The translations under genes and the position numbers were made by a program. Below, one piece after another: positions 5,345 through 6,232 of a stretch of 30,826 nt of DNA (positions within the stretch are counted from its first letter, which is position 1; the number at the start of each line of letters is the position of its first letter). The notes under the pieces are model-generated. The model had not been told where the DNA came from. It saw nothing but the letters and a program-made list of their open reading frames with translations, and ran no database searches. The stretch spans positions 1-30,826 of the forward strand of contig PEXF01000124.1 in NCBI GenBank assembly GCA_002779205.1, in the 5' to 3' direction. This stretch comes from Candidatus Hydromicrobium americanum. GTDB taxonomy: Bacteria > Actinomycetota > Humimicrobiia > Humimicrobiales > Humimicrobiaceae.

Positions 5345-5719
5345 TTATGACTGACTTTTCCTTATACCAACACTTCTTCTCTTACCTTTCCTGGTCCTGG
5401 CATTTGTGTGAGTCCTCTGACCTCTAACCGGCAATCCTCTTTTATGCCTGATGCCCCTGTAAGAGTTTATCTCGATCAGTCTTTTTATATTCTGGCTTAC
5501 TTCTCTTCTAAGATCTCCCTCAATAGTGTAGTTATTTTCTATATATTCTCTTATCTTAACTAGTTCATCTTCACTGAGATCTTTAGCCTTTATACTTTTA
5601 TTAATATTTAATTTATCCAGCATTGCTTCTGCCGCTGACCTGCCAATGCCAAAAATGTAAGTCAGAGCTATGCAAATGTGCTTATCATTTTGTATATCAA
5701 CACCTGAAATTCTTACCAA
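5345..5719 (-). CDS. rpsM: 30S ribosomal protein S13
   Basis: [52 protein letters not shown] start with AAGGAGGT SD. Confidence 0.99.
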
Positions 5720-5912: not shown

Positions 5913-6134
5913 TTACTTTTTTCTAAAAGTAATTCTTCCTCTATTTAAATCATAAGGTGATATTTCGACTTTAACTTTATCACCAGGTAAAATTTTTATA
6001 TAATGCATTCTCATTTTACCTGAAATATGCGCCAATACCTTATGACCATTATCAAGCTCTACCCTGAACATGGCATTAGGAAGTGCTTCTAAAATGGTTC
6101 CCTCGGCTTCTATTATGCCTTCTTTTTTAGAAAT
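5913..6134 (-). CDS. infA: Translation initiation factor IF-1 (probable ATT start)
   Basis: Not in the ORF track. Hand translation gives (I/M)[72 protein letters not shown] (73 aa). An in-frame TAG lies six codons upstream with no ATG/GTG/TTG between it and the ATT. Confidence 0.96.
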
Positions 6135-6184
6135 CTTTAAACCCCCGTGCTAATATTTTCAATTTAAAAATAACGCAAATACGT

Positions 6185-6213
6185 AGGTTATCAAAAAACT
6201 TTTAGTATGTCCA
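6185..6213 (-). promoter_or_regulatory. Putative sigma-70/SigA promoter for infA-rpmJ-alpha operon
   Basis: TGGACA (6213-6208), 17-bp spacer ending in TGA, TAACCT (6190-6185), in the map-infA intergenic gap. Confidence 0.6.
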
Positions 6214-6232
6214 CAATATTTTACTACTGCTA

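Follow-up and report, generated by a model that had tools for sequence, protein, structure and literature searches.

The infA locus

The window analysed here, a stretch of 30,826 nucleotides, comes from an uncultured groundwater bacterium of the Actinomycetota, class Candidatus Humimicrobiia. It contains, on the minus strand, an infA gene, which encodes translation initiation factor IF-1, in the order secY-adk-map-infA-rpmJ-rpsM-rpsK-rpsD, which is the usual cluster for this gene and in which all of the neighbours of infA have ATG or TTG starts. The features of the locus are collected in Table 1. Read along the coding strand, an in-frame TAG is followed by CAC GGG GGT TTA AAG, then by ATT, and then by TCT AAA AAA GAA GGC. 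A prior reading of the DNA made from the sequence only (the sequence-only reading) had proposed that the gene starts at this ATT, behind a GGGGG run and an in-frame stop, and each of these elements is present as it described them. The Shine-Dalgarno (SD) run is GGGGG here and GGAGG in many relatives. The window sequence has no ATG, GTG or TTG between the in-frame TAG and the ATG of Met22, and a standard scan for open reading frames recovers infA only as a 52-residue piece beginning at that ATG.

Table 1 Features of the infA start region in the window.
Feature	Position	Strand	Remarks
infA coding sequence, IF-1	5913..6134	-	73 codons followed by a TAA stop at 5913-5915
Internal ATG (Met22), false start	6069..6071	-	Used by simple gene callers, giving a 52-aa open reading frame
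ATT initiation codon	6132..6134	-	No other start-like codon from the in-frame TAG to position 1 of the TIGR00008 model
Shine-Dalgarno-like GGGGG	6142..6146	-	Separated from the ATT by 7 nt (6141-6135)
In-frame TAG	6150..6152	-	Stop five codons before the ATT, closing the frame
Conserved non-coding block, probable promoter(s)	6150..6225	-	Upstream of the infA SD

The 73-residue product scores 128.5 bits against TIGR00008, the infA equivalog model, whose cut-off is 61.15, and residues 4-72 match positions 1-69 of the 69 in the model. The 52-residue product from Met22 covers only model positions 19-69 and lacks 1-18, which bears out the earlier claims that the frame from ATT encodes a full-length IF-1 and that the first in-frame ATG would remove 21 conserved residues. 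Since the full-length match requires the ATT, we read this codon as the start of infA. A precomputed Pfam match to PF01176, the S1-like OB domain, exists for the identical 73-residue protein and for all close relatives. No other IF-1 match occurs in the assembly, which comprises 167 contigs and 1.18 Mb and is 82% complete. On this evidence infA is intact and present as a single copy, and its translation starts at AUU.

Independent sequence data and existing annotation

The ATT does not appear to be an assembly error. Contigs of three independent metagenome runs, from groundwater and sediment, span the infA start with the ATT unchanged, and no difference from the window is listed between positions 6081 and 6225. 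One metatranscriptome run also matched, and its contigs cover the gene body and pieces of the upstream region, none of them crossing the start.

A public protein collection holds the exact 73-residue IF-1, with Met at position 1. The public IF-1 records of relatives come from NCBI under the names Candidatus Hydromicrobium sp. and Candidatus Humimicrobiaceae bacterium, and in the record of one relative the called infA begins on ATT. The NCBI annotation thus already starts the infA of relatives at ATT, and apparently that of this genome too. The earlier expectation that gene callers would miss or truncate the gene is therefore only partly right: the truncated 52-residue form occurs on 35 public contigs, but NCBI already uses the ATT start. 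Other callers give, in some relatives, IF-1 forms of 75-122 residues that begin at an upstream TTG or ATG.

AUU-type starts are already known from infC and pcnB, a weak UUG start is known from chloroplast infA, and the AUU of infA itself is already in the NCBI annotation. Our literature search turned up no description of a bacterial infA with a natural AUH start (AUU, AUC or AUA), although absence from such a search is not proof.

Conservation of the infA start across the class

IF-1 was identified in each of the 87 species genomes of the class, and the start region could be read in 81. An unpublished genome, G032, was also among those searched, and none of its rows enters any of the claims made here. 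At the aligned start position 69 of these genomes have ATT, eight have ATC and four have ATA, and the canonical codons ATG, GTG and TTG occur in none of the 81; this tabulation had been proposed as a check on the ATT start, and it comes out in favour of it. ATT and ATC are found together within at least three genera, which indicates that the third base has changed repeatedly, never to G. ATT makes up 85% of the infA starts, compared with 39% of the internal Ile codons of the same genes (codons 2-25).

All 81 genomes have an SD-like 5-mer that ends 4-9 nt before the AUH, mostly at 6-7 nt. The nearest in-frame stop is 0-6 codons upstream in 58 of the 81 genomes, and in one genome it directly abuts the ATT. 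In 73 genomes the stretch from the nearest in-frame stop to the AUH is free of canonical codons, and in the remaining eight the upstream canonical codons are at non-conserved places. The same arrangement in every readable genome of the class implies that the ATT start of infA is not due to chance.

Codon -1 takes 15 different forms in the class, one of them a stop, whereas codon +2 always encodes a small residue, most often Ser, for which TCT, TCA, TCG and AGT are all used. This combination of a variable codon -1 and a constrained codon +2 with synonymous Ser codons indicates that constraint at the protein level begins exactly at the AUH. Codons 2-21 are kept as protein across the class, with synonymous changes.

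Outside the class, infA starts at TTG, GTG or ATG in the six readable genomes of other Actinomycetota classes. Among diverse bacteria the start could be read at 67 of 80 loci, and the only ones without a canonical start were two close relatives. In an unrelated metagenome-assembled genome of the Acidimicrobiales (CBDHFJ010000091.1), the IF-1 frame seemingly has CTG at the expected start, with no ATG, GTG or TTG nearby. For the actinobacterial class studied here, the aligned genomes show that selection has kept the start of infA as AUU, AUC or AUA, and never as AUG, GUG or UUG.

Initiator tRNA and upstream region

We looked for an initiator tRNA that would match AUU or UUY. The tRNA-fMet of this genome is standard, with the anticodon CAU, a C1 mismatch and an anticodon stem that contains three G-C pairs. 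Initiator-type anticodon loops were found in 67 of 80 family genomes, and all 75 of them read CAT, so no special initiator tRNA was found among these genomes.

The non-coding block upstream of the SD, about 75 nt long, is nearly invariant in an alignment of 17 species from three genera, and it is more conserved than nearby synonymous sites. It contains a promoter-like pair, TTGATA-16-TATTTT, at 6194-6167, with 9 of 12 positions matching the consensus, and a second, overlapping pair, TTGCGT-17-TATTAG, at 6178-6150. The block is probably one promoter or two, as suggested by these motifs. The spacer between map and infA folds no more stably than shuffled sequence (z = 0.35), so that we put forward no structure for the leader, and an Rfam scan of the whole window gave no match. 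An upstream open reading frame of 11 codons, initiated at TTG and overlapping the infA ATT, was considered and rejected as it is lost in close relatives. The retention of the SD in all 81 genomes argues for ordinary SD-led initiation of infA rather than for coupled or leaderless initiation.

Non-canonical starts elsewhere in the genome

We carried out an SD-anchored survey of the long open reading frames of this genome, in which 251 canonical starts were preceded by a strong SD. ATT occurs behind an SD and before the first canonical start three times, compared with 6.2 expected, and ATA occurs ten times, compared with 6.1 expected. ATA is thus slightly raised and ATT is not enriched, which indicates that ATT is not a common start in this genome. 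Plausible genes with an ATA start are nadE (C3:670), coaE (C28:1488) and a GalT-like gene (contig C3, minus strand), as well as genes for an M16 peptidase (contig C9, minus strand) and a lipoprotein (contig C84, minus strand); all have a good SD, and their first canonical start lies 25-84 codons further in. The ATA start of coaE is kept in several genera of the family and is replaced by ATT, ATG or GTG in others. Ordinary genes such as coaE therefore switch between weak and canonical starts, which infA never does. The infB gene of this genome starts at ATG.

The start of infC

The sequence-only reading had likened infA to infC, the gene for IF-3, for which AUU starts are the classical case, and had proposed that the infC start of this genome be checked. 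Most genera of the class, and the phylum more widely, do have ATT, ATC or ATA at the start of infC. The analogy does not extend to this genome itself, whose infC (contig C7, minus strand, about 5400-5470, outside the window) has neither AUU nor any other recognised start codon. The exceptions number 28 sequences: those of this genus, the majority of one sister genus, the whole of a second, and a single copy of the two in a fourth genus. None of them has an ATG, GTG, TTG, CTG or AUH codon between a strong SD (GGAGGTGY) and the conserved domain. The sole invariant codon in this interval is TTT or TTC, which lies 6 nt after GGAGG and between variable codons. Two sister species have ATT at the homologous position, and the stretch after it, N-D-K-(K)-R-I/V-R-I-N-E, is kept as protein between the ATT-start and the TTY sequences.

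In seven species, in-frame stops 1-4 codons ahead of the SD exclude starts further upstream. Several other candidates were rejected: the upstream ATG from which the public calls of 186 residues derive is part of a terminator hairpin, and in many species it is out of frame or stopped short, a later ATT corresponds to a conserved internal Ile and is ACT in this genome, a GTG within the SD belongs to another frame, which a stop closes, and a frameshift from another frame is inconsistent across species. The public calls, with lengths of 186, 166, 164, 162 and 151 residues, have at least five different N-termini. One family member (G061) has two infC copies, on contigs C215 and C37; one has a start region of TTC ATC, and in the other GAA comes straight after TTC, as though the ATC had been deleted. 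This genome may instead be a mixed bin.

From these alignments, the likelier reading is that IF-3 of this genome, together with the 27 related sequences, initiates at UUU or UUC. To our knowledge, these codons, which have two mismatches to the initiator anticodon, have not been reported as natural starts in bacteria. A bolder proposal, that in this genus and its sister genera IF-1 (from AUU) and IF-3 (from UUU or UUC) would both be made from codons that proofreading rejects, thereby forming a two-gene circuit dependent on lapses of fidelity, is possible yet rather doubtful.

Interpretation of the AUU start of infA

The infA gene starts at AUU, which the ordinary CAU initiator tRNA reads with a mismatch at the third position, and the strong SD, about 7 nt upstream, positions the ribosome on it. 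The reading that we favour, though with clear reservations, is that a feedback loop through IF-3 and IF-1 is the most likely reason for this start. AUH codons are the starts that IF-3, helped by IF-1, rejects kinetically. More IF-3 and IF-1 in the cell would then mean less IF-1 synthesis, and a shortage of both would mean more, in a self-limiting loop similar to that of infC, and the AUU would in addition hold IF-1 output low relative to the strong SD. The coupling of IF-1 synthesis to the IF-3 level that the sequence-only reading suggested is thus plausible, although the ATA starts of ordinary genes in this genome and the lack of an AUU on its infC complicate a simple analogy with infC. Published work provides the basis for this reading: IF-3 discriminates against AUU, AUC and AUA, with the support of IF-1, and both factors antagonise the locking of complexes with non-canonical ligands (PMC4611024), and an engineered infA mRNA starting with AUU competed least well in E. 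coli extracts (PMC5499595). On this basis, IF-1 output is probably kept low and inversely tied to the activity of IF-3 and IF-1. We know of no translational autoregulation of E. coli infA. The infC of this genus, having no AUH start, implies that infA and infC are not wired identically.

The main rival, which we consider possible but clearly less probable, is that the AUU is a fixed throttle, holding IF-1 output low against a strong SD and promoter with no sensing of IF-3 or IF-1, in the way proposed for pcnB of E. coli. The ATA starts on unrelated housekeeping genes of this genome fit this explanation and indicate that a weak start need not signal feedback, and related classes already carry a weak TTG or GTG on infA. 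AUH codons support about 1-2% of AUG initiation in E. coli reporters (bioRxiv 10.1101/063800). In chloroplasts, the UUG of infA limits output, and its change to AUG raised translation 300-fold (Hirose et al. 1999, as cited in PMC9845219). Nevertheless, AUH codons are by their chemistry subject to discrimination by IF-3 (PMC4611024), so that some dependence on IF-3 is hard to avoid, and a weaker SD would serve a throttle equally well, yet the SD is strong in all of the genomes.

It is very unlikely that the AUH of infA is a near-neutral quirk, inherited in a lineage of AT-rich genomes with strong SDs and relaxed use of start codons. Several plausible ATA-start genes in an assembly of 1.18 Mb, one of which (coaE) shares its ATA among several genera, are in line with such relaxed use; however, ATG is one base change away and was reached in none of the 81 species while ATT and ATC interchanged repeatedly, coaE did reach ATG or GTG in the same set of genomes, and ATT behind an SD is not enriched genome-wide. 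That the ATT is not a start at all, because the gene is broken or truncated, begins at Met22 or at an upstream canonical codon, is coupled to an upstream frame or contains a sequencing error, is scarcely credible: simple callers do choose Met22, or an upstream TTG or ATG in some relatives, but the protein-level conservation of codons 2-21, the in-frame stops close upstream in most genomes with no canonical codon between in 73 of 81, the lack of conservation of the TTG-initiated upstream frame and the identity of the base in independent assemblies all speak against it.

Comparison with known systems

The closest parallel to the loop that we favour for infA is E. coli infC, in which an AUU start underlies autoregulation by IF-3 (Butler 1987; Brombach & Pon 1987, both cited in PMC9845219; La Teana 1993, cited in PMC4611024). 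Both cases combine an initiation-factor gene, a conserved AUH behind an SD, a codon class that IF-3 rejects and the possibility of feedback. They differ in that the gene here is infA, whose product would be only a helper of IF-3 in discrimination. The second confirmed AUU start in E. coli, that of pcnB (bioRxiv 10.1101/063800), resembles infA as explained by the throttle, the AUU limiting translation of a product needed in small amounts; unlike infA, pcnB has no part in initiation, and its AUU does not imply feedback. In chloroplasts the same gene, infA, likewise retains a weak start codon (Hirose et al. 1999, cited in PMC9845219), although its UUG is canonical and not discriminated against by IF-3, whereas the infA described here has AUH. 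The engineered AUU-infA mRNA (PMC5499595) is likewise an infA message with AUU, translatable but the weakest when set against AUG mRNAs; it is artificial, whereas the AUU here is natural and conserved throughout a class.

Significance

In practical terms, simple gene callers remove 21 conserved residues from an essential protein, and the truncated form of IF-1 is present in public collections. The start of infC is a more unusual lead than the AUU of infA; if UUU and UUC were confirmed there, the known set of bacterial start codons would be widened. For infA, 81 species without a reversion to an ATG that is one mutation away make a clean natural test case. If this weak codon does act as a sensor, the dosage of IF-1, like that of IF-3, would be fixed during the same step that the factor helps to proofread, and the textbook principle of autoregulation would extend to a second initiation factor.
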